The notes beneath the pieces were generated by a model, which saw only the letters and a list, made by a program, of their open reading frames with translations, ran no database searches and was not told the origin of the DNA. From Bdellovibrionota bacterium (GTDB taxonomy: Bacteria; Bdellovibrionota_C; UBA2361; JBIKUX01), in the NCBI GenBank assembly GCA_044347345.1, contig JBIKUX010000006.1:25206-89205 (forward strand): a DNA stretch of 64,000 nt, given 5' to 3'. Every line of letters begins with the position of its first letter. Position 1 is the stretch's first letter. Below, piece by piece: positions 23,836 through 52,763 of this stretch. Made by a program: the position numbers and the translations under genes.

Positions 23836-24675
23836 ATGTCTAAAGACCGTGATCGTCGGTTCGGATGCTCAAAATTTTATCTATTTCCTGCATGGGCTAC
23901 CCTAAGCTTGTTAGGCTTGTTTAGTAGTGCCTGCACTCAGGAAAAAGAGTCTACGTCATCATCAGCATTGCCGACTCAAAGTATTGAGAGTAAGCCCGCT
24001 GATAGTAAACCCTCTAATACTAAGGGGGATAACGAGGGTAGTGTCATGGATTCTAAAAAAATAAGTTATATAATTGGACATAATATCGGTAAAAGTCTCT
24101 TATCTGATGGTGTTAGTGTAGAGAGACAATCTTTGCTTGAAGGGTTGAGCCAGGCTCTTGAGGGTAAAAATTCGCAATTTTCAGAGCAAGAGGCCACTCA
24201 AGCGCTACAACAACTGCAAAGAGAAGTTATGATGAAGCGTCAAGAAGCTTCAAAAGTACAAGGTAAAAAGAATGAAGAAGATGGCAAAGCGTTTTTAGCT
24301 CAGAACAAAAGTTTAGAGGGATGGATAGAGCTTCCAAGCGGCTTACAATACAAAATTGTAAAAGAAGGTTCGGGAATTAGTCCAAAATTAGAGGATACAG
24401 TTGTGGCGCATTACACTGGAACTCTTATAAATGGCACTAAGTTTGATAGTTCTCGTGATCGTGGCCAACCAGCTGAATTTCAATTAAGTGGTTTGATTAA
24501 AGGGTGGCAAGAGGCTTTGCAGATGATGAAGCCTGGTTCCAGATGGGAACTCGTAGTACCTTCTGACTTAGCTTATGGATCTCACGGTGCTGGCCCAGGT
24601 AGCCCCATTGGTCCTAATGAAACTCTTAAATTCGATATTGAATTAGTCCAAGTGAAGAGCTCATCTACTAAGTAG
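23836..24675 (+). CDS. mip: Mip-like FKBP-type peptidyl-prolyl cis-trans isomerase (probable lipoprotein)
   Basis: Signal peptide with Cys (LFSSAC). Long helical dimerisation region. C-terminal FKBP domain (VVAHYTGTLINGTKFDSSRDRGQPAEFQLSGLIKGWQEALQMMKPGSRWELVVPSDLAYG). Confidence 0.85.
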   Translation: MSKDRDRRFGCSKFYLFPAWATLSLLGLFSSACTQEKESTSSSALPTQSIESKPADSKPSNTKGDNEGSVMDSKKISYIIGHNIGKSLLSDGVSVERQSLLEGLSQALEGKNSQFSEQEATQALQQLQREVMMKRQEASKVQGKKNEEDGKAFLAQNKSLEGWIELPSGLQYKIVKEGSGISPKLEDTVVAHYTGTLINGTKFDSSRDRGQPAEFQLSGLIKGWQEALQMMKPGSRWELVVPSDLAYGSHGAGPGSPIGPNETLKFDIELVQVKSSSTK

Positions 24676-25750
24676 TAAGTAAAGATTTGTTTAGCCCACC
24701 ATCCAGAAGTGAAAGAAAGTGGTTTTCATCAGCGATTAAGGTAGTCTGTACAGTTACCACTATAAAACACTCTCTGAGATGGTGATTAAGAGGTATTATT
24801 TCATTAATTTTTATAGCGTCCTTTGCAGTTGTAATAATTAGAGCATTATTTGGTAATTTATCTGCATACTGCGTTAGGTCTGATAGTGAATAACGTGCAT
24901 GATCTTTGGCTAAAAATTGATGTGAAATTTTCAAGCCAGTTGATTTTACAGTTTGAATAAAACCATTGGGATTAGCTATCCCACACAAAATAGCTACTTC
25001 GTTCTTTATTTCTTCTTTCTTTATTAAAGTACCATCAAGTCGTTTGAGTATGGGAGGTGTAAGAGCCGTTTCAAAAAACGGAATTTTTTTTGGCAGAATA
25101 GCTACTAGATCATCTGGAATTGATTGAATATTAGAAATAACCTTTCGATGAGACAATATAATGGCTGAGGCTCTTTGCAGACCCTTATCTCTATCTTCTC
25201 GAAAAAAGCCTGCTGGTAAAAGCTTACCCTTTAAAAAATTATCAATTGCCTCTGAAGTACTTACATCGACCGTGATAAAATTTAAATCTCGGTGTATGTA
25301 TCTGTGCTGTAATCCGTCATCTAACAGTATGACGTTAATTTCAGGGTGATACTGTAGCAAAAGCTTTACTCCGTCACTTCTCTTTGGTGATACAACTATG
25401 GGAACGTGAAGTGTTTCTGATAGTAACTTTGGTTCATCGCCGACTACATTGCTTAATGTATCACTGTCAACAAATGTTGGCTTAGTAGCTGAACCACCGT
25501 AACCACGTGAAATAATCCCAACCTTATAGCCTTGCTGAGTAAGAGTATTGCAGAGATAAATAATAAAAGGAGTTTTTCCAGTCCCTCCAACAGTAAGATT
25601 ACCCACGCTTATCACACTAACCGGAGCGTGATATTGTTTAATTATATTTTGGTCGAAAAGAGTATTCCGAATGGAAGTTATTTGCCCATAAAAATAACTT
25701 AATGGATTAATAATCAGATTAGGTACCGACATATTCATATTCATATTCAC
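24668..25750 (-). CDS. lpxK: Tetraacyldisaccharide 4'-kinase
   Basis: VISVGNLTVGGTGKTPFIIYL matches the LpxK P-loop signature. Begins GTG-(AATATG)x3, giving MNMNMNM. Confidence 0.85.
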   Translation of the reverse strand: MNMNMNMSVPNLIINPLSYFYGQITSIRNTLFDQNIIKQYHAPVSVISVGNLTVGGTGKTPFIIYLCNTLTQQGYKVGIISRGYGGSATKPTFVDSDTLSNVVGDEPKLLSETLHVPIVVSPKRSDGVKLLLQYHPEINVILLDDGLQHRYIHRDLNFITVDVSTSEAIDNFLKGKLLPAGFFREDRDKGLQRASAIILSHRKVISNIQSIPDDLVAILPKKIPFFETALTPPILKRLDGTLIKKEEIKNEVAILCGIANPNGFIQTVKSTGLKISHQFLAKDHARYSLSDLTQYADKLPNNALIITTAKDAIKINEIIPLNHHLRECFIVVTVQTTLIADENHFLSLLDGGLNKSLLTT

Positions 25751-25820: not shown

Positions 25821-27095
25821 TTATACTGTTTCTAAAAGCTCTGAGCAAAGAGCTTGAATAGTACGACCGGTAGCGCCAATATGATTTTGAAAAGTCTGGT
25901 ATCCTTGTTCGCCGATATTTTTAAGTGCTTCTGGACATTCGACAAGTTTTCTTAGAACTTCAGTTGCTCCTAATTGATTGGTGATTTCAATTATTCCGTT
26001 GGTTTTTTTGAGATCTGATACAATCTCCCCAACAGTGAATGAATGAGGACCCATTACTACTGGCACTCGATAAGCCGCTGCCTCTAATGGATTGTGGCCA
26101 CCAATCGGTACTAATGAAGCTCCTATAAATACGAGTGATGAGTAGGAATAAACTCGCTCAAGTTCACCAAATGTATCAAGTAATACAATACGCTCATTGT
26201 CGTTAGCAGGGCGCTTTTCAGCTTTAAGAGTGGTAAATCTGACGGCAGAAAGACCAGCATTACTGAGAGCATTTTCAAAATACTCAAACTTTTCTTTATG
26301 ACGCGGCGCTACAATAAGTTGAAGATCGTGATATTTAGACATAATTTCACGAATCGGATCAAACCAAATTTTCTCCTCCTGTGGTCTTATGCTACCTAGG
26401 GTAATAATGCTTTTGGGAGTACTAAATATAGTATGAGCGTATACTGTAGCCTCCTCTTTAGATGTTATTGATGGTTTACGATCGTACTTTGTGTTTCCGG
26501 TGATGATTATGCGATTATTTGGAATGCCAAGGTTTGCATATCTATCCTTTGATGCTCTGTCGATCACACAAGCTAGAGATATAGCTTTAACTACATCCCT
26601 TAAAAAAGGAGCTAGAACTCGATAACGGTTAACTGTTGTATCGGAAATTCGGCCATTAATAATAAGCACCTTACCTCCTTGATTTTTTACGAATCTTATC
26701 AGTTCAGGCCAAAGCTCTGTTTCACAAATAATAAGAAGTTTAATAGTAGAATTTTTTAATGCTTGTTTTAAAAATTTTTTGCTATCAAAAGGAAGAAACG
26801 CTGAACCATCGAATAATTCTTTTCCAATTTTTTCTGCATAGTTTGAAACACTTGTGTGAAGAAAAAAGCTGGATGGAAACTTTGACTTAAAGAAGGGTAA
26901 AAGCTCCGCCACTGATTGAGTTTCTCCGAGGGAGGCTCCATGAAACCAAACAATTGACTGATTAGTTGGTAAGCTGAATGGCCAGAAACCATACCTCTCC
27001 TTGAGTCGGTATCTTCCTCTTGAAGAAGCAAAAAAAAATGGATAGGAAAGATAACCGAGAGCTAGCATTAAGAAGCGGTAAGAAAGTGTTCCCAT
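25821..27095 (-). CDS. waaA: 3-deoxy-D-manno-octulosonic acid (Kdo) transferase
   Basis: IWFHGASLGETQSVAELL N-terminal signature of WaaA/KdtA. GT30 C-terminal domain pattern. Confidence 0.85.
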   Translation of the reverse strand: MGTLSYRFLMLALGYLSYPFFFASSRGRYRLKERYGFWPFSLPTNQSIVWFHGASLGETQSVAELLPFFKSKFPSSFFLHTSVSNYAEKIGKELFDGSAFLPFDSKKFLKQALKNSTIKLLIICETELWPELIRFVKNQGGKVLIINGRISDTTVNRYRVLAPFLRDVVKAISLACVIDRASKDRYANLGIPNNRIIITGNTKYDRKPSITSKEEATVYAHTIFSTPKSIITLGSIRPQEEKIWFDPIREIMSKYHDLQLIVAPRHKEKFEYFENALSNAGLSAVRFTTLKAEKRPANDNERIVLLDTFGELERVYSYSSLVFIGASLVPIGGHNPLEAAAYRVPVVMGPHSFTVGEIVSDLKKTNGIIEITNQLGATEVLRKLVECPEALKNIGEQGYQTFQNHIGATGRTIQALCSELLETV

Positions 27096-27122: not shown

Positions 27123-30100
27123 CTAGCTGTACTTTTGATCTGGATTGTCGTTATGGTTTCCAGCATCCTCTGGGAATGTAATATCAATTTCATTTGTAAT
27201 CTTTTTACAAGAATTGTCGACAGAGGAGCTACCATCGAGAGACGAACTAACGAGAGATGCGCTAAATTGTAGCTCGTAGAGACGTTTGTACTCGCCGTCT
27301 TTATCCATTAATTCGTCATGTGTTCCTATTTCAACTACTACTCCATCTTTTAAAACAAAAATTCTATTGGCTGAGCGGATTGTTGAGAGACGATGAGCTA
27401 TCACAAGAGTTGTTCTGCCCTTTTCAAGAACCTCTAAGGCTTTTTGAACCTCACGTTCGGAACTATTATCAAGAGATGCTGTTGCTTCATCTAGTATCAG
27501 AATCGGAGATTTACTAATTAAAGCTCGTGCTATAGCGATTCTTTGTCTCTCGCCGCCTGATAAGGTCATTCCACTTTCACCAATAATTGTAAAGAAACCT
27601 AGAGGAAGCTGCTTTATAAATTGATAAGCATAAGCAAGTCGGGCAGCATTCTCTACGTCCTCGAGGGTCGCATCTCTTCTGCCATATCTTATGTTTTCAA
27701 AGATAGAATCCTGAAACAAAAATGTGTGCTGGCTTACCATAGCTATTCTCGAGCGAAGCTCAGAGAGAGAAAGTTTTCTTATATCAATTCCTCCAAGAAG
27801 CAATCGACCCTGAGTTGGATCGATAAAGCGCGGGATTAGATCGACAAGTGTTGATTTCCCTGATCCAGATAGACCAACAAGTGCAATTTTTTCTCCCTCT
27901 TCGATGGACATTGTGACATTGGTAAGGGCTCCTCGGGAGGAAGAACGACTATATGAGAAAGAGATATTTTCAAAAGAAATGCAGTTTGTTTTCGGCATGG
28001 AAACTGGATTTTCTGGTGAAGCTATAGTTACTTGAGCATCGAGCACTTCGAAAATACGATGACTGCCCGCTATGCCTTGTTGTAGTGCACCTGTAACTCG
28101 ACTAAGCTTTTTAAAGGGATCGTACATTAAAAAGACTGCTAGTAAAAAAGCTATAAAGTCACCCTGCGTTCTGCTGCCGGAGATAACTGTAGTACCTCCA
28201 TAGAAGATAATTGTACCAATTGCTATACTAGCTAGCACTTCGTTAATTGGTCCTACAAGAGCTCTAACTTTTTCTGACCGAATTAAGGTTCGAGTAAGAG
28301 AGGAGTTAGCTTGCCGAAAACGTGATTGTTCGTAGTCTTCTGCTGTGAATAATTTTACTATTTTATTGCCGTGAATAGCTTCGCTAAAAAGAGAGGACAG
28401 AGATCCTATAGCTTCCTGACCTTTTCTTGACAGCCTTCTCATCTTCTTTCCAAATGAACTGACTGGAATAATGCCAAGAGGGAATACAATCACTGCAATA
28501 AAAGCGAGAAATGGATCGAGAAAGAAAGCAGCAAAAGTGAGAGCAATTATTCTAACAATATCTCGAAGAATTGCTGATGTAGAATCCGTTAGAAGCGTGC
28601 GCACTAATTGAACATCTGCAGTAGCTCTAGCCAATAAGTCGCCACTGGATTTATCAGAAAAAAAACTCGGACTTAGTAATAATAATTTTTGGTGTAGTTT
28701 GTTTCTAAGGTCTTCAACGACTCGGTGCCCTACTGAATTTTGTAGATATTGTTGGCCAAAATCAACGAAGGCTCGAAAAAAACTAATGCTTACCAAAATA
28801 ATTGGAAAAATTAGTAAAACATCTCTTTGTCCATTTGTTAAAACCTTATCTAAAGCAAATTTAACAATAAACGGAACCGCTCCATCTGTTGCCCCGTAGC
28901 ATACCATACATAATATAGCTAAAATAAATCTGCGCTTGTGTGGTCTTAACAGTTCTAATAAGCGACGGTTCTCAGTGATTAACGGTGGTTTCGTGGCGGC
29001 AAGTTTTAGCGCAGTTTTAGCTACTCGAAGGGCTGCATCCTCTTTTGACTCATTAGAGGTTTCATTAGCTGAGAGATATGAAAGAAGATTTTCGCTTTTA
29101 TCCCTTTCATCGTAGCTAGATAATTGTTTGCGGATTAGAGCTAAATTATCTTCGATCTGCTTTCGGTAAGCATTATCTGTAAGTAATCTGTCTACTTCAT
29201 CTGCAACATTACTGACCGTAAAATCATCTTGTAGAAGTTCTCGAATAGTATTTGGTATAAGTATGTTTACTATGGAGAATTGCTTAAGTGGAGAGAGTTT
29301 TCTTATGATTGTTGCTGAAATTGGATGAACTGCATAGACCATCGCAAAAGGAAGGCCCGCATAGGCGGCTTCAAGGTTGCATGTACCTGACTTTAAAATA
29401 CCGATATCGCTACCGAACAAAACCGTTTTTGTATCTCCTTGCCAAACTATACACCAGTCTAAATGAGGACGAATTAATTCGTAGGTACCGGCGATTAAGT
29501 GGGAAGGAATGGGTATCACTGCTGTAATTGGTTTACCTCTTTTTCTGGCTTCTAAGAGGCCGTTAATTAATATTGGTAAATTCGCGGTAACTTCCTGAGA
29601 ACGGCTACCAGGGAAAATTGATACAACATTGTCGGATGAGGGGATTGCTAAAGTGCGCCGAAGTTCTGAGCTAATTTTTGTTCGCGTAGATGCTACGTCA
29701 TTAGGAAACTTATCCTTAAAAGGGTGCCCTACATAAGAAGTTCGGTAAAACCCATGTTTTGCTAAAAATTCCTTTTCAAAAGGAAATATAGTAGCTACAT
29801 GATGAACGTAGCGGTCGAGAGCACGGACTCGGCTTGGACGAGAAGCCCATAACTTTGGCGGTACATAATATAATACCGGTATTTTTAAATCTCGAGCTTT
29901 TTTTGCAACACGCAGATTAAAAGTTGGAAAATCAATCAAAATAATTACATCTGGTCGCCATGTTCGTAGAGTTTTTGTAATCGTAGAGAACGCCGTAAGA
30001 AGTTGTTTACCAGAGCGGATTACTTCAATAATCCCCATCACCGCACCAGCAGATTCTGAATCAACTACTATATTAATTCCTTGAGCCTTTGAATAGCGTC

Positions 30101-30356
30101 CTCCCATTCCTTTTATTTCGGCGTGCGGCACTAGGCTAAAAATAGCTTGGGCTAACTCTGCTGCTCTTTGGTCTCCTGAAACCTCTCCGGCAATAATAAA
30201 TATCTTAGGTCGGTCACACGCTGAATCTACTGTTTTAGCTAATACAGAATTTTCATCGACAGCTAATCCATCTTTAGCTAAAGGGATTGCGTTATTTGTT
30301 ACACCTGTCTTTGATGTTACTGAGTTTGTCATGCTGATATTTGGCATAAATTTCAA
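27123..30356 (-). CDS. Fusion protein: lipid-A-disaccharide synthase (LpxB) N-terminal domain plus MsbA-like lipid A ABC exporter C-terminal domain
   Basis: N-terminal KIFIIAGEVSGDQRAAELAQAI and IDFPTFNLRVAKKARDLKIPVLYYVPPKLWASRPSRV are LpxB-like. C-terminus has 6 TM helices, Walker A (GLSGSGKST), ABC signature (LSGGERQRIAIARAL) and Walker B (ILILDEATASLD). A single 1077-aa ORF with no internal stop. Confidence 0.8.
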   Translation of the reverse strand: MKFMPNISMTNSVTSKTGVTNNAIPLAKDGLAVDENSVLAKTVDSACDRPKIFIIAGEVSGDQRAAELAQAIFSLVPHAEIKGMGGRYSKAQGINIVVDSESAGAVMGIIEVIRSGKQLLTAFSTITKTLRTWRPDVIILIDFPTFNLRVAKKARDLKIPVLYYVPPKLWASRPSRVRALDRYVHHVATIFPFEKEFLAKHGFYRTSYVGHPFKDKFPNDVASTRTKISSELRRTLAIPSSDNVVSIFPGSRSQEVTANLPILINGLLEARKRGKPITAVIPIPSHLIAGTYELIRPHLDWCIVWQGDTKTVLFGSDIGILKSGTCNLEAAYAGLPFAMVYAVHPISATIIRKLSPLKQFSIVNILIPNTIRELLQDDFTVSNVADEVDRLLTDNAYRKQIEDNLALIRKQLSSYDERDKSENLLSYLSANETSNESKEDAALRVAKTALKLAATKPPLITENRRLLELLRPHKRRFILAILCMVCYGATDGAVPFIVKFALDKVLTNGQRDVLLIFPIILVSISFFRAFVDFGQQYLQNSVGHRVVEDLRNKLHQKLLLLSPSFFSDKSSGDLLARATADVQLVRTLLTDSTSAILRDIVRIIALTFAAFFLDPFLAFIAVIVFPLGIIPVSSFGKKMRRLSRKGQEAIGSLSSLFSEAIHGNKIVKLFTAEDYEQSRFRQANSSLTRTLIRSEKVRALVGPINEVLASIAIGTIIFYGGTTVISGSRTQGDFIAFLLAVFLMYDPFKKLSRVTGALQQGIAGSHRIFEVLDAQVTIASPENPVSMPKTNCISFENISFSYSRSSSRGALTNVTMSIEEGEKIALVGLSGSGKSTLVDLIPRFIDPTQGRLLLGGIDIRKLSLSELRSRIAMVSQHTFLFQDSIFENIRYGRRDATLEDVENAARLAYAYQFIKQLPLGFFTIIGESGMTLSGGERQRIAIARALISKSPILILDEATASLDNSSEREVQKALEVLEKGRTTLVIAHRLSTIRSANRIFVLKDGVVVEIGTHDELMDKDGEYKRLYELQFSASLVSSSLDGSSSVDNSCKKITNEIDITFPEDAGNHNDNPDQKYS

Positions 30357-30596: not shown

Positions 30597-30875
30597 ATGA
30601 AAACTAATTTACTCGTTTCCAGTGGTATTGTTCGCGCTACGTTAATAACTAGCATAAGTGTAGCGATGATTGGATGTGCTTCAGTAGGTGAAGTTCGTTC
30701 CTTGCGAGATGAGGTTAGGGGTTTGCGTTCAGCACACTCAGAAATATCTCAGGAAGCTCGCAGAGCTGGTGACGCAGCTGAAAAGGCTGAGTTACAAGCT
30801 AAAGAGGCTAACGAAAGGTCTGTCCGTACTGAAGAAATGCTCAATCGGAGCTTTCAAAGGAGGATGTATAAGTAA
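30597..30875 (+). CDS. Braun-lipoprotein (Lpp)-like small coiled-coil lipoprotein
   Basis: Strong SD (AGGAGG) upstream. Signal peptide with lipobox Cys (AMIGCAS). About 60 aa of heptad-like helix (LRDEVRGLRSAHSEISQEARRAGDAAEKAELQAKEANERSV). C-terminal ...RRMYK ends in Lys, as in E. coli Lpp (...TKYRK). Confidence 0.5.
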   Translation: MKTNLLVSSGIVRATLITSISVAMIGCASVGEVRSLRDEVRGLRSAHSEISQEARRAGDAAEKAELQAKEANERSVRTEEMLNRSFQRRMYK

Positions 30876-31977
30876 CACTAACTGATTCAGGAATGCCGTT
30901 AGCGTGGCTGATTAGTCTATCGATTTCTTTGCGAGAAGTTGGAGAAAAACCGCGAGATTGTAGAAGTTGATAAATTTTGTTTGTTTTAACCAATTTGTTA
31001 AAGGTTAAAGTTGAACTTTGTACCTGACTTGAACCTGACAGCGTTGAGTCTCGGGGCTGTTCACGTTGAAAATGATGTGATTGATTAACTGGTTGGTGAG
31101 TGATGTTGGGAAAGTTAGAATCGTCCTGTGATAAATCAGGATGAATTTCGACAAATACGGAGTTATGTCGCTCACCAACCTTGATTTGTTCGTCAATAAT
31201 TGTAACTTTTGTTCCTAGAGTTACCACAGCGAATAATTGGGCTATATCCTCAGGATACATTCGGATGCAGCCGTGAGTAACTAAAAGACCGATACCCATG
31301 GCTTTCTCAAGATTAGTTCCGTGAATAAGATAAGTGCTGTTACTTAGTCGTAAAGCAAATTGTCCAAGGGGGTTGTTGGGTGAACCGCCCTTAATGATAG
31401 TGGGGAGCGTATATCCGCCGGCAAGTGCTTCACGGTGAAGTGAGGGCGGAGGAATCCAATCTGGATGAACTATCTTTTCGGTTATTATTTTAACCCCCAG
31501 CGGTGTCTCCCAACCTTCTCTACCGAGGCTAACCGGAAAAGTCATTACATCTGTAGAATCATCACCTTTTGGAAAATAATACAAGCGCATTTCAGCTCTG
31601 TTAAGTATTATGCCGGTGCGTGGTCCAGGGGGTAGAACATACATTTGCGGGATTTTAACCTTAGTTCCGTCACCAGGAAGCCATACCGAAATATTTGGAT
31701 TAGCCTGTACAATCTGTTTAAATCCAAGATCGTATCTGCGAGCTATGACTGGTAATGTATCTTCCTTGGATGCTGTAATAAAAAATTTATTACCAATGAC
31801 GGATTCCTTAGGTGAATTTAAGTTAAAAGTTTCAGCAAGGGCAAATTTTTTACTATTATCCGAAATCAAATTAATGCTGATTAATATTGCCAAAACCACT
31901 AAACTGACTCGTAGTATGTGATTAATTAATAATATTACCGTTAGATTACTTAATAGATTCTTCATTAGTTTTTTCAT
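30841..31977 (-). CDS. L,D-transpeptidase (LysM plus YkuD domains)
   Basis: LysM-like DTLPVIARRYDLGFKQIVQANPNISVWLPGDGTKVKIP. YkuD catalytic motif LVTHGCIRMYPEDIAQLF (H...C). Confidence 0.8.
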   Translation of the reverse strand: MKKLMKNLLSNLTVILLINHILRVSLVVLAILISINLISDNSKKFALAETFNLNSPKESVIGNKFFITASKEDTLPVIARRYDLGFKQIVQANPNISVWLPGDGTKVKIPQMYVLPPGPRTGIILNRAEMRLYYFPKGDDSTDVMTFPVSLGREGWETPLGVKIITEKIVHPDWIPPPSLHREALAGGYTLPTIIKGGSPNNPLGQFALRLSNSTYLIHGTNLEKAMGIGLLVTHGCIRMYPEDIAQLFAVVTLGTKVTIIDEQIKVGERHNSVFVEIHPDLSQDDSNFPNITHQPVNQSHHFQREQPRDSTLSGSSQVQSSTLTFNKLVKTNKIYQLLQSRGFSPTSRKEIDRLISHANGIPESVSVTYTSSFESSD

Positions 31978-35830: not shown

Positions 35831-36538
35831 TTATGGTACTACAGCAATTGTTCCTACAATTGTAGCTGAACCTGGAATTTGGCTCCAAGTCCCATTTGCA
35901 CTACCCCTTGCAATCGCTGTTAGTCTGAATCTGACTGGTGTCGTCATTATGTTACCAGAATCAAGAGTTTGACCGGATTGATCTTCTCCTAAAGCTTCTT
36001 GTTCTAATCTCTCAACTTGAACCCACTGACTTAATCCTTGATTATTTGAAATCAGATAATCAGGAGGAGTATCTGGACGAGCTTGTAATTGTCGGTGTAT
36101 TGGTTGAGCCAAAGAAACAGTTGTTGCATAGTCTCCAGCAAACGGTCCGATATTTTTAACTAAACCACCAGAATAGGGGTACATATTTCGATGACAACCT
36201 GGACTGTTGATCTCACAGTGAGGAATGCCGTTTTGATCCTGCGCACTGAGGGGGCTGTAAGCCTGATAGTTTAATGGAGAATCAAGAGTTTGTAACGCAT
36301 CCCACTGTTTTGCATTCGAGGCAATTTGAGCTGCTTGGCTATAAAGAGCTCCCTCAGCAGCGGCAAATAATTGCGCAGACTGCTCGTAATTATTTGATGT
36401 TTGCAGCATATTTCTGCCCATGAGGCTGACTACGGCAGCAACCATCACCATAGTAACAAGAAAAAAAAGAGCTACTGGCAGGGCAAACCCGGATTGCTGT
36501 GATACTTTCAGGAGCTTATTATCAGCATCGGTGATCAT
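35831..36538 (-). CDS. Minor pseudopilin, GspK/PilX-like
   Basis: N-terminal QQSGFALPVALFFLVTMVMVAAVV hydrophobic segment, without Glu at +5 (typical of GspK/PilX). Last gene of the pseudopilin operon. Confidence 0.5.
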   Translation of the reverse strand: MITDADNKLLKVSQQSGFALPVALFFLVTMVMVAAVVSLMGRNMLQTSNNYEQSAQLFAAAEGALYSQAAQIASNAKQWDALQTLDSPLNYQAYSPLSAQDQNGIPHCEINSPGCHRNMYPYSGGLVKNIGPFAGDYATTVSLAQPIHRQLQARPDTPPDYLISNNQGLSQWVQVERLEQEALGEDQSGQTLDSGNIMTTPVRFRLTAIARGSANGTWSQIPGSATIVGTIAVVP

Positions 36539-37215
36539 ACCGTTTTTCTCCTCATGCCTACACTACTTTGGAAAGGAATCAGACGTGGATTATTTGTTTG
36601 ATTTTTTACCTCGATCTGAAACGCTATACTAAGGGCGTTATTTTCTATAGTAAAAACTTTACCGTTGTTAATCTCTGGGGCACGAATTCTAGAGGTCATT
36701 AATAGAGCAGAATTGAGCGGATCTGTAGCGGGTGTATTGCAGGTTCCATCTGATTGTCTTGATGGTGGATTATTCATAAGAATCTGACCACGGACAAGCT
36801 CATTTTTGGCTGGATTGAAACGGTAACCAACGTACCAAAGTTGTTGGCCTCTACCGGCGCTTTGGCTTACTGAATCGTGGCTGACAAAAAATCTAATATC
36901 GTTCCCGTCAGTGCTGATTTCAACCTGATTAGGACACATTTCAAGAGCTGAATTAATCCCACCAAAGTATGGAGATAGTATCCCAGCCATTCTCACTTCT
37001 GCGAGTAATGAGTGTAAAATGTAACGAGCTTGCATTGATGATTCAGCAGCTTGAGTCTCAAAAGATAGTGTGCTGTAAGCAGAGGATGTTGCACTAGCAA
37101 TACTTAAGATGGTGACACCAAGTAAGACTACTGCTACAAGCATCTCCATGAGTGTATAGGCTTGACTATTTTTAACCTTAGAAGAGATACGATGAAGTGG
37201 TTTACCTGAAGTCAT
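36535..37215 (-). CDS. Minor pseudopilin, GspJ/PilW-like
   Basis: Prepilin-type N-terminus QAYTLMEMLVAVVLLGVTILSIA (Glu at +5, Ala instead of Gly at -1). Confidence 0.55.
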   Translation of the reverse strand: MTSGKPLHRISSKVKNSQAYTLMEMLVAVVLLGVTILSIASATSSAYSTLSFETQAAESSMQARYILHSLLAEVRMAGILSPYFGGINSALEMCPNQVEISTDGNDIRFFVSHDSVSQSAGRGQQLWYVGYRFNPAKNELVRGQILMNNPPSRQSDGTCNTPATDPLNSALLMTSRIRAPEINNGKVFTIENNALSIAFQIEVKNQTNNPRLIPFQSSVGMRRKTV

Positions 37216-37226
37216 GCAAATTCCAT

Positions 37227-37700
37227 CTATCTAAAATCAGCTAAAACAGTTGAGAATTGGTAGCTGATGGGAGCATAACCTGCTCCCATCTTATTGCGTA
37301 CAACCAGATTTATCTCTACCCAGTCAGGTAAAATAGCTGACGGAGCACTCATACGAGCTATATATTCAATATTTATTGAGTAGTTTGCTTTTTCAATAGA
37401 TGTAGCAGAAGTTGGAGAAAAAATTGTTTGAGTGACAACTTGGTTTTTGGTAATCGCATCACTGCCAAAGATGCTCACGATATTTTGAGCATAAGGTTTG
37501 CTTCGCATTGATTCAATTAAACCTTGAGCTGCAAACATAGCTTCTGTATTTCTTCGAGAATGAGACGTTGAGTGAATAGATCTTATTAAAAGTCCCCCAA
37601 AAGCAATAAGTGTCATGCTTATGAGCGAGAGCGCAATCATGTTCTCAATAATTGAGATACCTGAGTTTTTGCCTCGAAATTGTTTTTTAAATCTGAACAT
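37227..37700 (-). CDS. Minor pseudopilin, GspI/PilV-like
   Basis: Prepilin-type N-terminus GISIIENMIALSLISMTLIAFGG (G|xxxxE). Confidence 0.6.
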   Translation of the reverse strand: MFRFKKQFRGKNSGISIIENMIALSLISMTLIAFGGLLIRSIHSTSHSRRNTEAMFAAQGLIESMRSKPYAQNIVSIFGSDAITKNQVVTQTIFSPTSATSIEKANYSINIEYIARMSAPSAILPDWVEINLVVRNKMGAGYAPISYQFSTVLADFR

Positions 37701-37715
37701 ATCTTTTACACTTGC

Positions 37716-38237
37716 TCACTTAATCCCTTGCTCCATTGACACAGATCCAAATGGATTAACTATCACCGTCTGTTTTATTGTCCCTAGTTGTATTGTTAAA
37801 GTAATAGGATTTAAAATAAGTTCTCCGTTTTGATAGACATGACCCAATCCAGAAAACGTGAACTGTTGAGGCAGTTCTTCCCACTTAATCAGTTTTTTAG
37901 TTAATTCTTCCTTAAAGCTAAATTCGTCGTCGCGAAGCGTTCCTGTGCCAGCTACATCGTAAAAAAAACCGTTCTCTTCAAAAGATACCGTTACTGGTCT
38001 ATGAGATCTTATTGCTTCAAAGCGAGAATGTTGTAACTTCAGTGCTATTGTCCGTCTTATCACGCCTAGACTTTGCCATTTGGTAGTTTCAGAAATACTA
38101 GCGTATGCTACACCTAAAACTATATTTAAAATTCCTACTGAAATAATGAGCTCTAAAAGAGTAAAACCTCGACAATAGTTTAATTGAGATCTTTTTATCT
38201 CAGCCCATTCCTTCATACTCAAGGTCCACTGTATCAA
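37716..38237 (-). CDS. Minor pseudopilin, GspH/FimT-like
   Basis: Canonical prepilin motif RGFTLLELIISVGILNIVLGVAYA (G|FTLLE). Confidence 0.7.
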   Translation of the reverse strand: MIQWTLSMKEWAEIKRSQLNYCRGFTLLELIISVGILNIVLGVAYASISETTKWQSLGVIRRTIALKLQHSRFEAIRSHRPVTVSFEENGFFYDVAGTGTLRDDEFSFKEELTKKLIKWEELPQQFTFSGLGHVYQNGELILNPITLTIQLGTIKQTVIVNPFGSVSMEQGIK

Positions 38238-45407: not shown

Positions 45408-46565
45408 ATGAGTTTCGCAATCTCAAGTACTGTCGATGGGGAGAATGTTCAGCTTCTAATCAGTACGGTGCGTAATTTTGTTGAAAAAGAAATTACGCCA
45501 CAAGTCAAAAAAATAGAGGAGCTAGGCTCAATTCCTCGGACTATTTGGCAGGCACTAGGATCTCTCGGGTTATTGGGAATTACTGTACCTGAGGAATATG
45601 GTGGTGTTGGTCTTGGCTACTATGCTCACTGTTTGGTCATGGAAGAGATAAGTCGAGTATCAGCTTCATTGGGCTTAAGCTACGGTGCTCATTCAAATCT
45701 GTGCGTAAATCAAATAATGCTTAATGGCTCAGATGCTCAGAGGGCAAAATATCTACCTAAATTAGTTGCAGGAGATTATATAGGGGCACTTGCTATGAGC
45801 GAGAGCTCGTCTGGCTCCGATGTAGTAAGTATGAAACTTAAAGCAGAGCGTCGTGGTAACAGCTATTTTCTTAATGGTTCCAAAATGTGGATTACCAATG
45901 GCCCACAAGCAGATATAATTGTGGTTTACGCTAAAACTAACCCAAGTTTAGGATCACGCGGAATTACAGCCTTCATTATTGAGCGAAACTTCAGTGGTTT
46001 TAAATCTGCTCAAAAGTTAGACAAACTTGGTATGCGTGGGTCAGAAACATCTGAATTAATTTTTGATTCGTGTGAAGTCCCAGCTGAAAACGTCTTGGGT
46101 GATGAAGGTGAAGGGGTACGTGTTTTAATGAGTGGTTTAGACTATGAGAGGATAGTTTTATCCGGCGGTCCAGTAGGTATTATGCAAGCTTGTTTAGATA
46201 CAGTATTACCGTATGTTCGAACTCGCGAACAATTCGGTAAGCGTATTGGTGATTTTCAACTAGTTCAAGGTAAGCTCGCCGATATGTACACCGCATTGGG
46301 CTCAAGTAGAGCCTACCTTCATCATGTAGCTAAGCTATGCGATATGGGCAAGGTCGCTAAAGAAGATGCAGCGGCAGTAATTCTTTACTGTGCTGAATCA
46401 GCAACAAAAGTGGCACTTGATGCTATTCAACTGCTCGGAGGTAATGGATACACTTCCGATTATCCGACAGGTCGTTATCTTAGAGATGCAAAGTTATATG
46501 AAATTGGTGCTGGAACATCTGAGATTAGGCGAATGTTAATCGGCAGAACCTTAGTTGATCGGTGA
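45408..46565 (+). CDS. Isovaleryl-CoA dehydrogenase (acyl-CoA dehydrogenase family)
   Basis: ACAD fold motifs ([10 protein letters not shown]..., C-terminal [35 protein letters not shown]). Context: directly followed by MCCase beta, a hydratase and HMG-CoA lyase. Confidence 0.85.
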
Positions 46566-48178
46566 TTATGACAATCCTTACTACATCGATTGATATAAAC
46601 TCCTCTCGCTTTAAAGAACAGTATTCAGAGATGGCAACACTAGTGTCGCACCACTCATCTCTCGTAAAGCGAGCGGCGTTAGGTGGAGGACGGGAAGCAG
46701 CCATTAGGCACGAACAGCGAGGGAAGTTATTGCCGAGAGATAGAATAGCGGCACTAATTGACAAGAACACTGAGTTTTTTGAGCTAAGTCCGCTTGCAGC
46801 ACATAGCGTTTATGATGAAGAGGTTCCTGGTGCTGGAATAATCACCGGACTCGGTTGGATATCTGGGCATCTTTCGGTAATCGTAGCGAATGATCCAACG
46901 GTAAAAGGTGGTACTTACTTTCCCTTGACTGTTAAAAAACATATAAGAGCTCAAGAAATTGCCTTAGAAAATCATTTGCCGTGTGCATACTTAGTAGATT
47001 CTGGTGGCGCATACCTACCGCGACAAGATGAAGTTTTTCCGGATCGAGATCACTTTGGCCGCATATTCTACCTTCAGGCTAGAATGTCAGCGTTCAAAAT
47101 TCCGCAACTTGCTATTGTACTTGGTTCCTGCACGGCTGGTGGTGCTTATGTGCCGGCAATGTCAGATGAAGCTATCATGGTAAAAGGAAATAGCACTATA
47201 TTTTTAGGTGGCCCACCTCTTGTGCGAGCTGCTACGGGAGAAAATATTGATGCTGAGTCATTAGGCGGAGCTGAAGTACACTGCACTGTGTCAGGAGTAG
47301 CCGATCATTTTGCTGATTGTGAGCAGGCGGCTTTTGATAAGGCAAGAGCAATTTTTGCTCGTTATCCGGGAGTAAATTCTGATAAATGTTATAGATATAA
47401 TTTTGCAAAGACTCCCAGATACAATCCTGAAGAAATATATGGAATTGTCCCACGAGACCTAAGAAAACAGTACGATGTAAGAGAGATTTTAGCTCGAATA
47501 GTTGATGATTCCTATTTTGATGAGTTTAAGGCTCGGTATGCACGTACCATTGTTTGTGGCTTTGCTGAAATTGGTGGACATCTCATCGGAATATTGGCAA
47601 ACAATGGAATTTTATTTTCAGAATCAGCATTGAAGGGTGCACATTTTATTCAGTTGTGTTCTCAGCGTGATATACCGCTTCTTTTTTTACAAAATATAGT
47701 GGGATTTATGGTTGGCTCCAAGGCAGAGCACGAAGGTATTGCAAAACATGGAGCAAAACTTGTTGCTAATGTAGCTACTACACATGTTCCAAAAGTCACT
47801 GTACTGATTGGAGGAAGTTTTGGAGCGGGTAATTATGCAATGTGTGGAAGAGCCTATAATCCTCGTTTTTTATTTTCTTGGCCAAATTCTCGTATATCTG
47901 TGATGGGAGGTGAGCAAGCGGCAAGAGTGATGTCAATTATTCACGCTGAAAAGCATCATAGAAATGGTCAATTATGGACAGACGATGATGAGGTATCGCT
48001 GACTGATCCGATTCGAGCTCAATATGAAATTCAAGGGAATCCTTTTTATGCTACTGCACGCCTTTGGGATGATGGTATTCTTGATCCTGCGAAAACAAGA
48101 GATCATATTATACAAGCGTTCAATGCTACGCAGTTTGCACCACTTGAAAAGCCATTAAGTAGCGTACTTCGAATGTGA
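46562..48178 (+). CDS. Methylcrotonyl-CoA carboxylase carboxyltransferase (beta) subunit
   Basis: 538 aa. Carboxyltransferase-domain motifs. Start overlaps the ivd stop by 4 nt. Confidence 0.85.
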
Positions 48179-48193
48179 AAAAGTAAGTTATAA

Positions 48194-49045
48194 ATGTCAA
48201 ATACTTGCGATAAAATTCTACCATCACCGCTGCTAATAAATGAAAATCAGGAAAAGTCGATTGTATATATAACTCTAAATAGACCTGATGCTAGAAATGC
48301 TTTTACTCGCAAAATGTTGGATATTTTACACAGTTGGCTAGTAAATTTTCCAACGACGTATTCAAGACATCAATACCGAGCAGTAGTTCTTAGGGCTAAT
48401 GGGGAGGATTTTTGTGCTGGTGCAGATCTTTCTTGGATGGCTTCAGCACAAGCAATGACTCCTGAAGAAAATGAAGCAGATGCTAGAGTGCTTGCTGAAG
48501 TTTTAAGTATGTTATCTAATTTACCCATTCCCACACTGGCTGAAGTAAAGGGAAGGGTAATCGGAGGCGGACTTGGTTTTGTAGCCGCTGTAGATATAGC
48601 TATTGCTACAGACAGCTTTCACGGTAAATTTAGCGAGTCCTTACTTGGATTAGTACCTGCCACAATAGCCCCATACATAGTACGAGCGATAGGTGATCGT
48701 GCTACAAGGGCGCTTTTTTTAACAGCAAATAGTATAAATGCGAAAAAGGCAGTTGAATTTGGACTTCTTCATGAAGTAGTTTCAACGGATCAACTATCCA
48801 ACCGTTGTGATGAAATACTAAATGCTATTTGTGCATGCGCTCCTAAATCTCAAATGGCAATTAAGGAGCAACTTTCCTTTTTGAGGGAAGAGCTTCAAAA
48901 AAAGCCGTTTATCCATATCCAGCAAGACTCAATTTCTCGGTTAGCAAAGGTGAGAGTATCAGATGAAGCAGTAGAGGGTCTAAACGCTTTTATAGAAAAA
49001 AGAGATCCTGTTTGGCGCAAAAAGACAGATCAAATAAAGGCTTAG
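48194..49045 (+). CDS. Enoyl-CoA hydratase (crotonase family; probably methylglutaconyl-CoA hydratase by context)
   Basis: Crotonase oxyanion region ANGEDFCAGADLSWM. Confidence 0.75.
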   Translation: MSNTCDKILPSPLLINENQEKSIVYITLNRPDARNAFTRKMLDILHSWLVNFPTTYSRHQYRAVVLRANGEDFCAGADLSWMASAQAMTPEENEADARVLAEVLSMLSNLPIPTLAEVKGRVIGGGLGFVAAVDIAIATDSFHGKFSESLLGLVPATIAPYIVRAIGDRATRALFLTANSINAKKAVEFGLLHEVVSTDQLSNRCDEILNAICACAPKSQMAIKEQLSFLREELQKKPFIHIQQDSISRLAKVRVSDEAVEGLNAFIEKRDPVWRKKTDQIKA

Positions 49046-49049
49046 TAAC

Positions 49050-49994
49050 ATGGCTAATCTAAAGCCTATAGATGGTGATGATAATCATGCTGTGATAGTT
49101 GAAGTAGGCTTAAGAGATGGTTTACAAGCCATCAAGAAAATTTTAACTCCAGAACAGCGAGCAGAATTAATTTTATCTTTAATTGAGGCAGGTATTCATC
49201 ACATTGAAGTGGGGAGCTTTGTTTCGCCAAAAAAAGTACCACAACTTTCAGACACAGGAATTGTGGCAGAGTTAATTGGCATACAAGAGGGCATTATTAC
49301 CAGCGCGCTTATTCCAAATGAGCGAGGACTTTACGAAGCACTCCAAACATCAATAGACGAATATGCTGTTTTTATCGGTGCTACTGATGAATTTACTCTC
49401 GGAAATATAGGAAAAACCGTTCAACAAGCGTTGGAGACATATCAAGAAATTATTAAGATAGCGTTCGCTCGAGGAAAAAAGGTCAGAGGCTATCTTTCAT
49501 GTATTGTGCGATGTCCTTATTCTGGCGCGGTTAGTTCAATTCAAGTGGCACGATTAGTGGATAAGTTACTTGAAATAGGTTGTTACGAAGTTTCGCTTGG
49601 TGAGACATTAGGAGTTGCAACTCCAGCGGACATAGAAAAAGTGCTTCATAATTTGGGAAATATATCTCTAACAAAACATGTAGCCTTGCACCTTCATAAT
49701 ACATTTGGTCAGGCATTAGCGAATATATTGAGGGGGCTTGATTTGGGAATAAGACGCTTTGATGCTGGAGTAGGAGGATTTGGCGGTTGTCCATTTGCGC
49801 CAGGTTCAGCTGGTAATTTGGCCACTGAAGATTTAGTTTATCTACTCAATGGTTTGGGTATAAAGACGGGAATAAACATCAATGCCCTTCCACAAATTAC
49901 TCGAAAAATTTCAACTCTTACTGGCGAGAGTGCGCACTCTCTAGTAAGCAAGGCACTTGAAAATCAGCTCTCATGTAAATCTGTATTTCCTTGA
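49050..49994 (+). CDS. Hydroxymethylglutaryl-CoA lyase
   Basis: VEVGLRDGLQ signature and TIM-barrel pattern. Confidence 0.85.
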   Translation: MANLKPIDGDDNHAVIVEVGLRDGLQAIKKILTPEQRAELILSLIEAGIHHIEVGSFVSPKKVPQLSDTGIVAELIGIQEGIITSALIPNERGLYEALQTSIDEYAVFIGATDEFTLGNIGKTVQQALETYQEIIKIAFARGKKVRGYLSCIVRCPYSGAVSSIQVARLVDKLLEIGCYEVSLGETLGVATPADIEKVLHNLGNISLTKHVALHLHNTFGQALANILRGLDLGIRRFDAGVGGFGGCPFAPGSAGNLATEDLVYLLNGLGIKTGININALPQITRKISTLTGESAHSLVSKALENQLSCKSVFP

Positions 49995-50009: not shown

Positions 50010-52763
50010 ATGCAGCAAAATAAAATCTTATGGGAAGCATCGAAAGATAAAAAAACCAAATCGCAAGTATACAAGTTTATTGATACAGCTCGAAAGGATA
50101 CCGGCCGAGATTTTTCAAACTATAAGGATTTGCACTTATGGTCTTGCAAATATCCCGAAGAGTTTTGGTCATTAGTGGCAAGATTTACAAAATTTTGTGA
50201 ACAGCATCAAAATATACCTTATTCAAGCTCTGATAAATCATTTTGCTCTTCTCGTTTTGGTGATGGTGTAAATTTTAATTATGCTGAACGGGTAATTTAT
50301 CCTCCGTTCAAAACTGCTTCAGATACAGCTATAATTGAGGTAAATGAGAGTGGTGAGTGGAGCTCTTATTCTTTTGAGCAGTTGCGAACCTTAGTTTGTA
50401 GTATTAGTGATTGGTTCCATAATTTTGGAGTAGGTAAAAATGATCGTATCGCAGGAATAATCACTAATTGTGCTAATGGTGTATGCAGCTATTTAGCATC
50501 TGCTAAATTAGGAGCTATCTGGGCTTCGTGTTCACCAGAGTTTGGTGATTCTGCTATAATAGACCGCTTGCTAATGATTAATCCTGCAGTTCTAGTTGTA
50601 TCCTTGTTTAGCGCTTATAACGGAAAAAAATATGACCATAGTGAGCGAATAGCTAGCCTGCTTAAAAAAATTAGCTCGATTAAATCTGTTTTGATTATTG
50701 ATCATGATATATCTGATGATACACTAAATAAATTTGCAGATAGTATTCCAAGTACAATAACGTGTGCGCACATTTCTCAAACTAAATGTGCTAATAATAA
50801 CCAGAAATTTGAACAATTTCCTTTTTCTCATCCTTTAACTCTATTATTTTCATCTGGCACGACTGGTAAACCTAAAGCCATACTGCATGGAGCAGGAGGG
50901 ACATTACTTCAGCATCTCAAGGAGCATCAACTTCATTGTGAGTTTAATCATGATGCAATCGTTTGTTTTTATACCTCAACTGGTTGGATGATGTGGAATT
51001 GGTTAATTAGTTCTCTTGCATCTGGATCTTCAATTGTGCTTATAGATGGCTCACCGATGTTTCCATCCGTCAGTCGTCTTTGGAGACTAGTTGATCAATT
51101 TAATATTACAGCTCTTGGTGTTAGCCCGAGATATTTAAGCACTGTTGAAAAAGAGAATGGATATAGCCCAATTAAAGAACATAAGTTAAGTAGTCTTTCT
51201 CTGTTACTGTCTACCGGCGCTCCATTACTCGGGACACAATTTGATTGGATTTATAATTCAGTAAAAAAGGATTTGATGGTGGCTTCTATTTCTGGAGGAA
51301 GTGACATCATTTCTTGCTTTGCATTAGGAAACATTCTTGCACCGGTCAGGCGTGGAGAAATTCAAGCAGCTGGACTCGGGATGGATATAGCAGCATTTTC
51401 AGATGATGGAACAGAGTTAACTGATACCGTTGGAGAGTTAGTCTGCCGGACACCTTTCCCTTCAATGCCGGTTGGATTTTGGAATGATCCTAATAACACT
51501 CTGTTTAATCAGACTTATTTTTCTCGTTATCCGAGCGTTTGGATGCATGGCGATAGAGTTATAATTTATGATCATGGCGGATTGGAAATTTTAGGCAGGT
51601 CTGACACCGTACTTAATCCAGGTGGTGTGCGAATTGGCACAGGTGAAATATACTCGGTCATCTCTAAGATACCGTGGATTACGGATGTAGTAGCAGCCCC
51701 ATTAAAGAGACAAGGAGATGAAGATATTATTTTAATTGTATCATTAGCTTATAATGATAATTTGACTGAGGATAAGATAGAAGAAATTCGAAAATTAATT
51801 CGTTCGGAGCTTTCACCACGTCATGTACCAAGGTTTATATTTTCTGTTTCTAGTCTTCCGCACACTATGAATGGTAAAATCTCAGAAGTAACAGTTAGAA
51901 AAATTTTGAATAATGAGGATATAAATAATACCACTTCTCTTGCTGACTCTTCAGTTTTGACTGAATTAGTAGCGATTAGAAAAATCATAATGACCGATGC
52001 AGATTATCAGGCTAGATGTGATCTCTCGATTGTTATACCTGCTTATAATGAAGAGAACAGGTTGCCTGCTACTGTACTAAGTTATCGAACTTGGTTACTA
52101 CAAGAGCAGCAGACTTTAAATCGACTTGGTATTTCATCTATAGAAATAATTGTTGTAGATGATGGAAGTATTGATAGAACAGCAGAGGTAGTTGCATCTT
52201 TTTCATCATCCTTTTTACCGGTGCGTTTTGTTAGACATTCAAGAAATCTTGGCAAGGGAGCAGCAGTTCGTACAGGTTCACTGCAAGCAATAGGTAAATT
52301 CATTCTTGTTGCAGATGCCGATGGATCTACTCCCATTGAAGAGTTAGAGCGATTATTAATTCATATGAATAGTGGACAAGCACAAATAGTTGTTGGCTCA
52401 CGCGTTGTTACAAATAATAAAGTTAGGCGCCATATAAAATGGTATCGTCGTTTTCTGGGATGGCTCTTTAGAGGCCTAGTGCATAAGATAGCATTCGGAG
52501 ATTTACAAAATATACATGTTGAAGATACTCAATGCGGTTTTAAGCTAATGACTTATGAAGTAGCACAGGCTATATTTACAAAAGCTACCATTGATCGTTT
52601 TGCATGGGATGTCGAATTTTTACGGGTTGCTGCTCTGCAAGGGTGCACAATATTAGAGGTGCCAGTTTCATGGCATCATGTTACTGGCTCACGGATCAAT
52701 TTATTAACAGCACCTTTTTCTATGTTACTAGATCTTGTCAGAATTAGGCTAAGACATAGATAG
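50010..52763 (+). CDS. Fusion: acetoacetyl-CoA synthetase (AMP-dependent synthetase) N-terminal ~650 aa plus GT2-family glycosyltransferase (DPM1-like) C-terminal ~250 aa
   Basis: AACS-like N-terminus (LWEASKDKK...LHLWSCKYPEEFW). AMP-binding motif SSGTTGKPK. C-terminal IVIPAYNEENRL...VVDDGSIDRT...VADADGSTP are GT2 signatures. Confidence 0.75.
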   Translation: MQQNKILWEASKDKKTKSQVYKFIDTARKDTGRDFSNYKDLHLWSCKYPEEFWSLVARFTKFCEQHQNIPYSSSDKSFCSSRFGDGVNFNYAERVIYPPFKTASDTAIIEVNESGEWSSYSFEQLRTLVCSISDWFHNFGVGKNDRIAGIITNCANGVCSYLASAKLGAIWASCSPEFGDSAIIDRLLMINPAVLVVSLFSAYNGKKYDHSERIASLLKKISSIKSVLIIDHDISDDTLNKFADSIPSTITCAHISQTKCANNNQKFEQFPFSHPLTLLFSSGTTGKPKAILHGAGGTLLQHLKEHQLHCEFNHDAIVCFYTSTGWMMWNWLISSLASGSSIVLIDGSPMFPSVSRLWRLVDQFNITALGVSPRYLSTVEKENGYSPIKEHKLSSLSLLLSTGAPLLGTQFDWIYNSVKKDLMVASISGGSDIISCFALGNILAPVRRGEIQAAGLGMDIAAFSDDGTELTDTVGELVCRTPFPSMPVGFWNDPNNTLFNQTYFSRYPSVWMHGDRVIIYDHGGLEILGRSDTVLNPGGVRIGTGEIYSVISKIPWITDVVAAPLKRQGDEDIILIVSLAYNDNLTEDKIEEIRKLIRSELSPRHVPRFIFSVSSLPHTMNGKISEVTVRKILNNEDINNTTSLADSSVLTELVAIRKIIMTDADYQARCDLSIVIPAYNEENRLPATVLSYRTWLLQEQQTLNRLGISSIEIIVVDDGSIDRTAEVVASFSSSFLPVRFVRHSRNLGKGAAVRTGSLQAIGKFILVADADGSTPIEELERLLIHMNSGQAQIVVGSRVVTNNKVRRHIKWYRRFLGWLFRGLVHKIAFGDLQNIHVEDTQCGFKLMTYEVAQAIFTKATIDRFAWDVEFLRVAALQGCTILEVPVSWHHVTGSRINLLTAPFSMLLDLVRIRLRHR

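Follow-up and report, generated by a model that had tools for sequence, protein, structure and literature searches.

A rare LpxB-MsbA fusion protein predicted in a deep-branching Bdellovibrionota bacterium

Introduction

LpxB, the lipid-A-disaccharide synthase, is peripheral to the membrane; both lipids that it uses as substrates, and its product, reside in the inner leaflet. MsbA, the lipid A flippase, works as a homodimer. The steps that separate the two are carried out by LpxK, WaaA and the late acyltransferases. Known control of lipid A synthesis acts mainly on LpxC; the spatial organisation of the membrane-phase steps, and their matching to MsbA-mediated export, are unsettled questions. 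Here we describe an open reading frame (ORF) that joins LpxB to an MsbA-like transporter of the ATP-binding cassette (ABC) family in one polypeptide. It lies in a 64,000-nucleotide stretch of DNA from a Bdellovibrionota bacterium (GenBank assembly GCA_044347345.1, contig JBIKUX010000006.1, positions 25,206 to 89,205), hereafter called the window.

E. coli LpxB is an obligate dimer that is swapped at its C-terminus: the last 87 residues complete the fold of the partner, and the last helix completes the N-terminal Rossmann domain (PMC5785501). Its active site contains E15, S17, the catalytic base D98, G199-S200-R201, T277 and E281, which binds the ribose of uridine diphosphate (UDP), together with the structural residue N316, and its association with the membrane needs a hydrophobic patch formed by V66, V68, L69, L72, L75 and L76 (PMC5785501). 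The interior site of E. coli MsbA for the lipid A headgroup consists of R78, R148 and K299 (PMC10945598; PMC8660845).

Results

One reading frame encodes LpxB and an ABC half-transporter

An initial annotation, made from the sequence without database searches, had read the gene as a single minus-strand ORF of 1077 amino acids that fuses LpxB to an MsbA-like protein. The ORF is listed exactly so, it is uninterrupted, and Pfam confirmed both sets of domains in the one reading frame: LpxB at residues 52-410 (E 3e-68), ABC_membrane at 477-745 (E 4e-50) and ABC_tran at 811-960 (E 8e-33). The parts of the gene are as follows.

27123..30356, minus strand: fused lpxB-msbA ORF, 1077 codons from TTG 30356, stop codon at 27123-27125
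30213..30356, minus strand: N-terminal extension, residues 1-48, unconserved in homologues and predicted disordered
28992..30212, minus strand: LpxB domain (lipid-A-disaccharide synthase, predicted GT-B fold), residues 49-455, from Pfam, NCBIfam, alignment and the AF2 model
28968..28991, minus strand: inter-domain linker, residues ~456-463 (KPPLITEN), from alignment and the AF2 model
27987..28967, minus strand: MsbA transmembrane (TM) domain, residues 464-790, elbow helix and six TM helices, from Pfam, alignment and the AF2 model
27258..27986, minus strand: MsbA nucleotide-binding domain, residues 791-1033, with all ATPase motifs, from Pfam and alignments
27126..27257, minus strand: C-terminal tail, residues 1034-1077, rich in Ser, Asp and Asn, unconserved and predicted disordered

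Three candidate start codons lie within 25 nucleotides (TTG 30356, ATG 30347 and ATG 30332), and the real start is uncertain. Public gene calls begin at ATG 30347 (Met4) and give a protein of 1074 amino acids (P0001, 100% identical). No convincing ribosome-binding site was found upstream of the fused ORF. Homologues of the fused protein start only ~10 residues ahead of the first LpxB strand (alignment A1), and the first ~48 residues of the window protein are probably an unconserved, disordered extension, or else are partly untranslated.

The fusion recurs in independent assemblies and in homologues

The identical fused protein was found on at least 17 contigs. At the nucleotide level, the 3225-nucleotide ORF showed 0 differences from the window in six assemblies that came from six samples (three JGI metagenomes and three SRA runs) and two pipelines. 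Among 5.8 billion clustered proteins, a search found 20 more fused homologues of full length, each with LpxB, ABC_membrane and ABC_tran domains, at 42-65% identity to the window protein and on unrelated contigs of up to 334 kb. The fused proteins align end to end, and conserved columns stand on either side of the junction (A1). Because six assemblies are identical and 20 homologues are fused in the same way, the fusion is not an assembly error. The initial annotation had named a stop codon or frameshift in the linker as the result that would split the gene in two, and had proposed looking for the same architecture in other genomes; neither a stop nor a frameshift appeared, and besides the 20 homologues we found fused loci in seven species-level genomes. 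A missed stop or frameshift is thus excluded for practical purposes.

The LpxB half is complete

The N-terminal half passes the Pfam family threshold for LpxB (PF02684, 230.8 bits against a cutoff of 22.6) and also the curated cutoff of the lpxB equivalog model in NCBIfam (TIGR00215, 196.3 bits against 190.25). E. coli LpxB was the sole sequence match to this half in the PDB, and the pairwise alignment of the two proteins gave 29% identity over residues 49-378 of the fused protein; residues 49-455 as a whole correspond to essentially all of the E. coli protein. The counterparts of the E. coli active-site residues are E58, S60, D142, G250-S251-R252, T325, E329 and N364, each of which is either invariant across the 20 fused proteins or conserved in at least 90% of them. 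The hydrophobic patch is largely kept as well, its counterparts being I110, V112, I113, G116, L119 and L120, among which G116 is the exception. In the AF2 model this half alternates strands and helices, as checked for the GT-B fold, with a pLDDT of ~90 at residues 51-413 and a confident last helix at 441-455; the model is of a monomer and is blind to a swap. LpxB motifs had initially been noted in residues ~50-440, and the complete domain, with every active-site residue kept, extends from 49 to 455. These data suggest that the LpxB half is complete and apparently catalytically competent.

Two of the fused homologues, P0005 and P0008, carry a Gln (…CNLQGA…) in the column of E329, where it replaces the UDP-ribose-binding Glu. 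In these two proteins the LpxB module may work poorly or may differ in how it binds its donor.

The ABC half most resembles MsbA

The C-terminal half has the layout of a half-transporter, with an N-terminal domain of six TM helices and a C-terminal nucleotide-binding domain that carries the complete set of ATPase motifs. From the sequence and the invariant columns of A1, we located Walker A at G828-T836 (GLSGSGKST), the Q-loop at Q876, the signature at L932-R939 (LSGGERQR), Walker B at I952-D956, the catalytic E957 and the H-loop at H988. The six TM helices and the complete ATPase of the initial annotation were therefore borne out, the former as six long helices in the AF2 model. E. coli MsbA aligns with this half from its R14 to its end at 35% identity with 3 gap positions, so that the pairwise alignments proposed at the outset delimited both domains.

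The ABC half could also have been closer to multidrug exporters than to MsbA, as the initial annotation had pointed out, and each of four comparisons placed it nearer to MsbA. TIGR02203 (MsbA_lipidA) was the top of 192 matching ABC models in NCBIfam, although its score of 560.9 bits lies under the curated cutoff. A full-length search of the PDB ranked eukaryotic two-half ABCB proteins first, which is uninformative because such proteins match twice, and a query with the TM domain only was used instead. In that search MsbA structures were the four best, with A. baumannii MsbA at 140.9 bits, followed by TmrA (124.5), Sav1866 (118.5) and BmrA (117). Foldseek of the AF2 model likewise returned MsbA as the best matches. 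The last comparison concerned the interior lipid A site, where R528, R598 and K749 are the counterparts of E. coli R78, R148 and K299: in an alignment guided by a hidden Markov model (HMM), 20 of 21 fused proteins had this R-R-K triad, against 0 of 47 other ABC proteins from the same search. The exterior lipopolysaccharide (LPS) site of E. coli MsbA, R188/R238/K243, aligns with K638/T688/R693, in which two of the three positions are basic and R689 adjoins T688. No second full ABC exporter was found within the window.

Directly downstream of the fusion lie two further lipid A genes.

25821..27095, minus strand: waaA (kdtA), Kdo transferase, starting 27 nucleotides downstream of the fusion (Pfam, NCBIfam)
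24668..25750, minus strand: lpxK, tetraacyldisaccharide 4'-kinase, last gene of the apparent operon (Pfam, NCBIfam)

The same two genes directly follow msbA in most of 56 related loci, and in E. coli, too, lpxK follows msbA in an operon. Because of the R-R-K triad, the rankings in which MsbA came first and this gene context, the ABC half is best read, from its sequence, as the MsbA of this lineage.

The two halves are joined by a linker of about eight residues

The AF2 model was made as a single chain from a 20-sequence alignment and has a mean pLDDT of 75.7. It divides the protein as follows.

Residues 51-413: LpxB module, pLDDT ~90
Residues 416-437: disordered loop, pLDDT <50
Residues 441-455: last LpxB helix, pLDDT ~90
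Residues 456-461: six non-helical residues
Residues 462-468: short elbow helix
Residues 471-772: six long TM helices
Residues 793-1033: nucleotide-binding domain
Residues 1034-1077: disordered tail, pLDDT <50

The helix at 441-455 matches, by alignment, the C-terminal helix 'A.RVA.L..EL' of the unfused LpxB of relatives and stands at the same position as the last helix of E. coli LpxB. Because this helix is the last of LpxB, the real linker comprises only ~8 residues (nucleotides 28968-28991); by alignment and model together, the true inter-domain linker is about 6-8 residues long. The initial annotation had also proposed a short polar linker, at residues ~414-438 (SSYDERDKSENLLSYLSANETSNESKED). 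A short linker does exist, but the residues assigned to it form the disordered loop inside the C-terminal segment of LpxB. The junction itself had been estimated at 28.95-29.10 kb, a range within which it indeed falls. Between A453 and M484 the frame contains no ATG, GTG or TTG, and M484 is already inside TM1. The MsbA half is therefore without a start codon of its own.

Unfused neighbours in relatives suggest how the fusion arose

We scanned the junction-spanning alignment A2 against one genome per GTDB species and analysed the resulting 56 loci by ORF and HMM analysis. They fall into the following arrangements.

7 of 56 loci: single fused ORF (L002, L005, L006, L008, L009, L011, L012)
32 of 56 loci: lpxB directly upstream of msbA as separate genes
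15 of 56 loci: msbA-waaA-lpxK without lpxB upstream, a divergently transcribed gene taking its place
2 of 56 loci: uninformative

Of the 32 separate pairs, at least 18 have an lpxB stop codon that overlaps the msbA start codon (TAATG, TGATG, ATGA, ATGTATAG), a layout that is classic for translational coupling and lies one base change away from a fusion. A trace of the former start appears to survive in the linkers of the fused proteins P0003 and P0004, where the old MsbA start motif 'M(K/Y)R..YL' is kept ('...RMKRYL...', compared with 'MYKRILRYL...' in unfused proteins).

Five loci (L001, L003, L004, L007 and L010) have lpxB and msbA in the same frame with one TAG or TAA between them, and are thus one point mutation from fusion. 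Readthrough or recoding at these stops was considered and rejected, since an ordinary ATG 4-30 nucleotides past the stop begins a conserved MsbA N-terminus. Another merger was seen in locus L045 (7735-9969, plus strand), where waaA and lpxK form a single stop-to-stop ORF of 745 amino acids as assembled, with WaaA at 8-406 and LpxK at 418-717.

A neighbour-joining tree of the MsbA domains interleaved the fused, adjacent and lpxB-less forms, and its deep branches were too short to decide between a single and a repeated origin of the fusion. A distant fused LpxB-MsbA protein, P0230 (1013 amino acids), is only 37% identical to the window protein, is rich in Ala and Arg, and has the canonical LpxB motif SGTATLD instead of the KSGTCNLEAA of the fused clade. 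For these reasons its sequence suggests that fusion occurred independently at least once, in another lineage with high GC.

Nearly all genomes with related loci are bins assembled from metagenomes, under the labels Bdellovibrionota, Bdellovibrionales, Oligoflexia or 'Deltaproteobacteria', and a few stand in the databases under the putative labels Dadabacteria, Binatia or Chloroflexota. The window also encodes a FlhA protein, whose closest named relatives are found in Oligoflexia and Bdellovibrionota bins at only 41-44% identity; on this evidence the organism belongs to that radiation as a deep-branching, uncultured member. Sample numbers like those of the Lake Mendota bins among the related genomes hint at a freshwater habitat.

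The fusion is rare and its database names are one-sided

A profile of the fused protein, run with HMMER against 1.84 billion representatives clustered at 50% identity, matched 137,540 proteins at E <= 1e-30. Fusions of LpxB and ABC domains were 9 of the best 150 matches, and more distant ones could rank lower. No solved structure with both modules was found by PDB sequence search or Foldseek. A full-text literature search, whose coverage is thin for subscription journals, returned no description of an LpxB-MsbA fusion; in the papers that pair these terms with 'fusion', the word refers to other proteins. The sequences themselves do stand in public databases, under names that cover one half, either 'lipid-A-disaccharide synthase' (RMD86063.1) or 'subfamily B ATP-binding cassette protein MsbA'. 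We conclude that the fusion is rare, conserved and apparently undescribed, a new architecture of two well-known proteins and no new kind of system.

The surrounding genes

A scan for promoters and terminators over 24.3-30.9 kb gave counts no higher than the shuffled expectation and nothing usable on the limits of the operon. Across the whole window no Rfam family reached its gathering score, and no tRNA, rRNA or riboswitch was found. In E. coli, enzymes of the YkuD class link Braun's lipoprotein (Lpp) to peptidoglycan. Upstream of the fusion, a 92-residue lipoprotein that resembles Lpp, has the lipobox …AMIGC and matches Pfam Alanine_zipper lies tail to tail, with an overlap of 35 nucleotides, with a gene for a YkuD L,D-transpeptidase. 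Together they look like an outer-membrane tethering pair adjoining the lipid A operon. The features seen elsewhere in the window are listed with this pair.

30597-30875, plus strand: Lpp-like lipoprotein
30841-31977, minus strand: YkuD L,D-transpeptidase with a LysM domain
10278-14964, plus strand: sigma-70-family factor, FliF/YscJ-like ring protein and FHIPEP (FlhA/EscV) export-gate protein together
35831-38237, minus strand: four small ORFs in a run, at least one with a prepilin-type N-methylation signal (pseudopilin-like), adjoined by an Exo_endo_phos protein
45408-49994, plus strand: acyl-CoA dehydrogenase, carboxyltransferase, enoyl-CoA hydratase and an HMG-CoA lyase-like gene in a row
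50010-52763, plus strand: single ORF of 917 amino acids with an AMP-binding (adenylate-forming) domain at 103-417 and a family-2 glycosyltransferase at 673-844

The genes at 10278-14964 belong to a cluster for a flagellum or for type III secretion, and the FlhA of the window is just 41-55% identical to its nearest relatives. The genes at 45408-49994 look like a leucine/isovalerate catabolic cluster.

Discussion

We consider it likely that the gene encodes a genuine bifunctional inner-membrane LpxB-MsbA protein, which heads an lpxB-msbA/waaA/lpxK operon and was born from adjacent, coupled genes. The protein would carry LpxB at its N-terminus, on the cytoplasmic face, joined by an eight-residue linker to the elbow helix at the N-terminus of an MsbA-family lipid A flippase. 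Such a topology is compatible with both partners, because the N-terminus and elbow helix of MsbA are cytoplasmic and LpxB acts at the cytoplasmic face of the membrane. The fusion would have arisen when the stop/start junction between translationally coupled lpxB and msbA genes was lost, the unfused state being common in relatives. MsbA from this gene would be made only as the fusion, with an obligate 1:1 stoichiometry of LpxB to MsbA, and since MsbA works as a homodimer the fused particle would be 2:2. A permanent anchor beside the exporter may replace the weak peripheral membrane binding of LpxB, and the membrane-phase steps of the Raetz pathway (LpxB, LpxK, WaaA, late acylation, MsbA) may be concentrated around the exporter. 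The initial annotation had stated that the fusion physically couples LpxB to the exporter. This holds for the single polypeptide but not as substrate channelling, for the two activities are non-consecutive. Because three or more enzymatic steps intervene, and lpxK and waaA are retained, a direct handover of the LpxB product to MsbA is unlikely.

Several observations weigh against this interpretation. The ABC half misses the curated cutoff of TIGR02203 (560.9 against 602) and falls well below that of PRK11176 (450.5 against 867), the TM domains of TmrA and Sav1866 score just 16-22 bits under the best MsbA, and R238 of the exterior site is unconserved (T688). The cutoffs were set on free proteobacterial MsbA, and a deep-branching lineage may fall short of them with the same protein. 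A swapped LpxB dimer is hard to fit beside one MsbA dimer when the last LpxB helix lies ~8 residues from the elbow helix; possible arrangements are that the swap is abandoned, that the LpxB modules meet around one MsbA dimer, or that pairing joins LpxB modules of neighbouring MsbA dimers. Another, free copy of lpxB or msbA could lie elsewhere in the genome, beyond the window, and the protein could be separated by proteolysis after translation. For every fused member, the case is built on sequence and predicted structure.

How much weight do the alternatives deserve? Relatives with separate genes differ from the fusion by as little as one base at the overlapping stop and start, so a single indel at the junction, introduced in sequencing or assembly, could mimic a fusion of separate lpxB and msbA genes. 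Against such an artefact, which we regard as extremely improbable, stand the ORF without nucleotide differences across six assemblies, six samples and two pipelines, the 20 homologues at 42-65% identity on unrelated contigs, and the window junction itself, where no leftover start or stop codon is found at any nearby position. We also think it unlikely that the ABC half is another type IV exporter (for multidrug or for other lipids or glycolipids) fused to LpxB. The missed equivalog cutoff, the TM domains of TmrA, Sav1866 and BmrA within ~16-24 bits of the best MsbA and the loss of R238 would fit such an exporter, but MsbA models and structures rank first in every comparison of the ABC half, the interior triad is kept here and missing in the other exporters of the comparison, the conserved msbA-waaA-lpxK context resembles the E. 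coli msbA-lpxK operon, and the window holds no other full ABC exporter.

The two remaining alternatives accept the fused gene and concern what becomes of LpxB. The module might be a non-catalytic remnant, a scaffold or a lipid-sensing regulator of MsbA, with a separate lpxB doing the chemistry; the search for a second lpxB spanned the window only, and P0005 and P0008 have Gln for the ribose-binding Glu. This is very improbable for a domain that passes the lpxB equivalog cutoff, largely keeps the hydrophobic membrane patch (I110, V112, I113, L119, L120) and has every listed active-site residue intact, as do 18 of the 20 fused proteins. A chain that is translated as one and then cut, in the linker or in the 416-437 loop, would make the fusion merely a means of enforcing equal synthesis. 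The model does offer a polar loop, 22 residues long and disordered, and a linker that is short and exposed, and on processing the sequence data are silent; the loop, however, precedes the final helix of LpxB, which in E. coli completes the N-terminal domain's fold, and the linker is short and without a conserved recognisable cleavage motif. We consider such cleavage unlikely, and favour a bifunctional protein that stays in one piece.

A conserved, obligate LpxB-MsbA polypeptide is an argument that evolution tolerates, and sometimes favours, LpxB at the exporter. It provides a ready-made construct for testing the placement of LpxB at the exporter, and a natural hint of LpxB-MsbA proximity. Taken as a 'Rosetta stone', it might even mean that LpxB normally touches MsbA in a membrane-bound complex for lipid A assembly and export, in unfused bacteria as well, and that LpxB pairing links MsbA dimers into chains or patches, an LPS 'factory'. 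LpxB could pair between MsbA dimers because its swapped C-terminal segment runs straight into the elbow helix; we offer this wider idea tentatively and doubt that it holds. The fusion sets structural work a puzzle, namely how an LpxB dimer with swapped C-termini can sit beside the MsbA dimer, and it might also help such work: LpxB in its free form is difficult to handle, and six or seven solubilising mutations were needed for the E. coli structure. There is also a lesson for annotation. With labels that cover one half, 'lipid-A-disaccharide synthase' or 'MsbA', pathway reconstructions of these genomes would report the other gene missing.

Comparison with known systems

E. coli LpxB (PDB 5W8S/5W8X/5W8N) shares the active-site residues and most of the membrane patch with the fusion. 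It is a free peripheral membrane protein, whereas the LpxB of the fusion continues after ~8 residues into a transmembrane protein, has a 22-residue disordered insertion before its last helix, and carries the clade motif KSGTCNLEAA in place of the ASGTAALE of E. coli. With the MsbA proteins of E. coli, Salmonella and A. baumannii the fusion shares the fold of six TM helices and nucleotide-binding domain, the interior lipid A site and the presence of lpxK in the operon; a whole LpxB enzyme stands in place of the first 13 residues of MsbA. Close counterparts are the unfused lpxB|msbA pairs of relatives among uncultured Bdellovibrionota, 'Deltaproteobacteria' and Binatia (L001, L003, L013-L039 and others), whose genes are orthologous and keep the order lpxB-msbA-(x)-waaA-lpxK, with the same LpxB tail 'A.RVA.L' and MsbA head 'R.L.YL.PH', but are made as two polypeptides with an intervening stop codon. 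Mergers of other lipid A genes offer a further comparison. LpxC-FabZ 'bifunctional' proteins are annotated in Bacteroidota, and the waaA-lpxK ORF of L045 likewise merges neighbouring lipid A genes into one polypeptide. These two join soluble or peripheral enzymes, whereas LpxB-MsbA joins an enzyme to an exporter and brings together activities that are not consecutive in the pathway.

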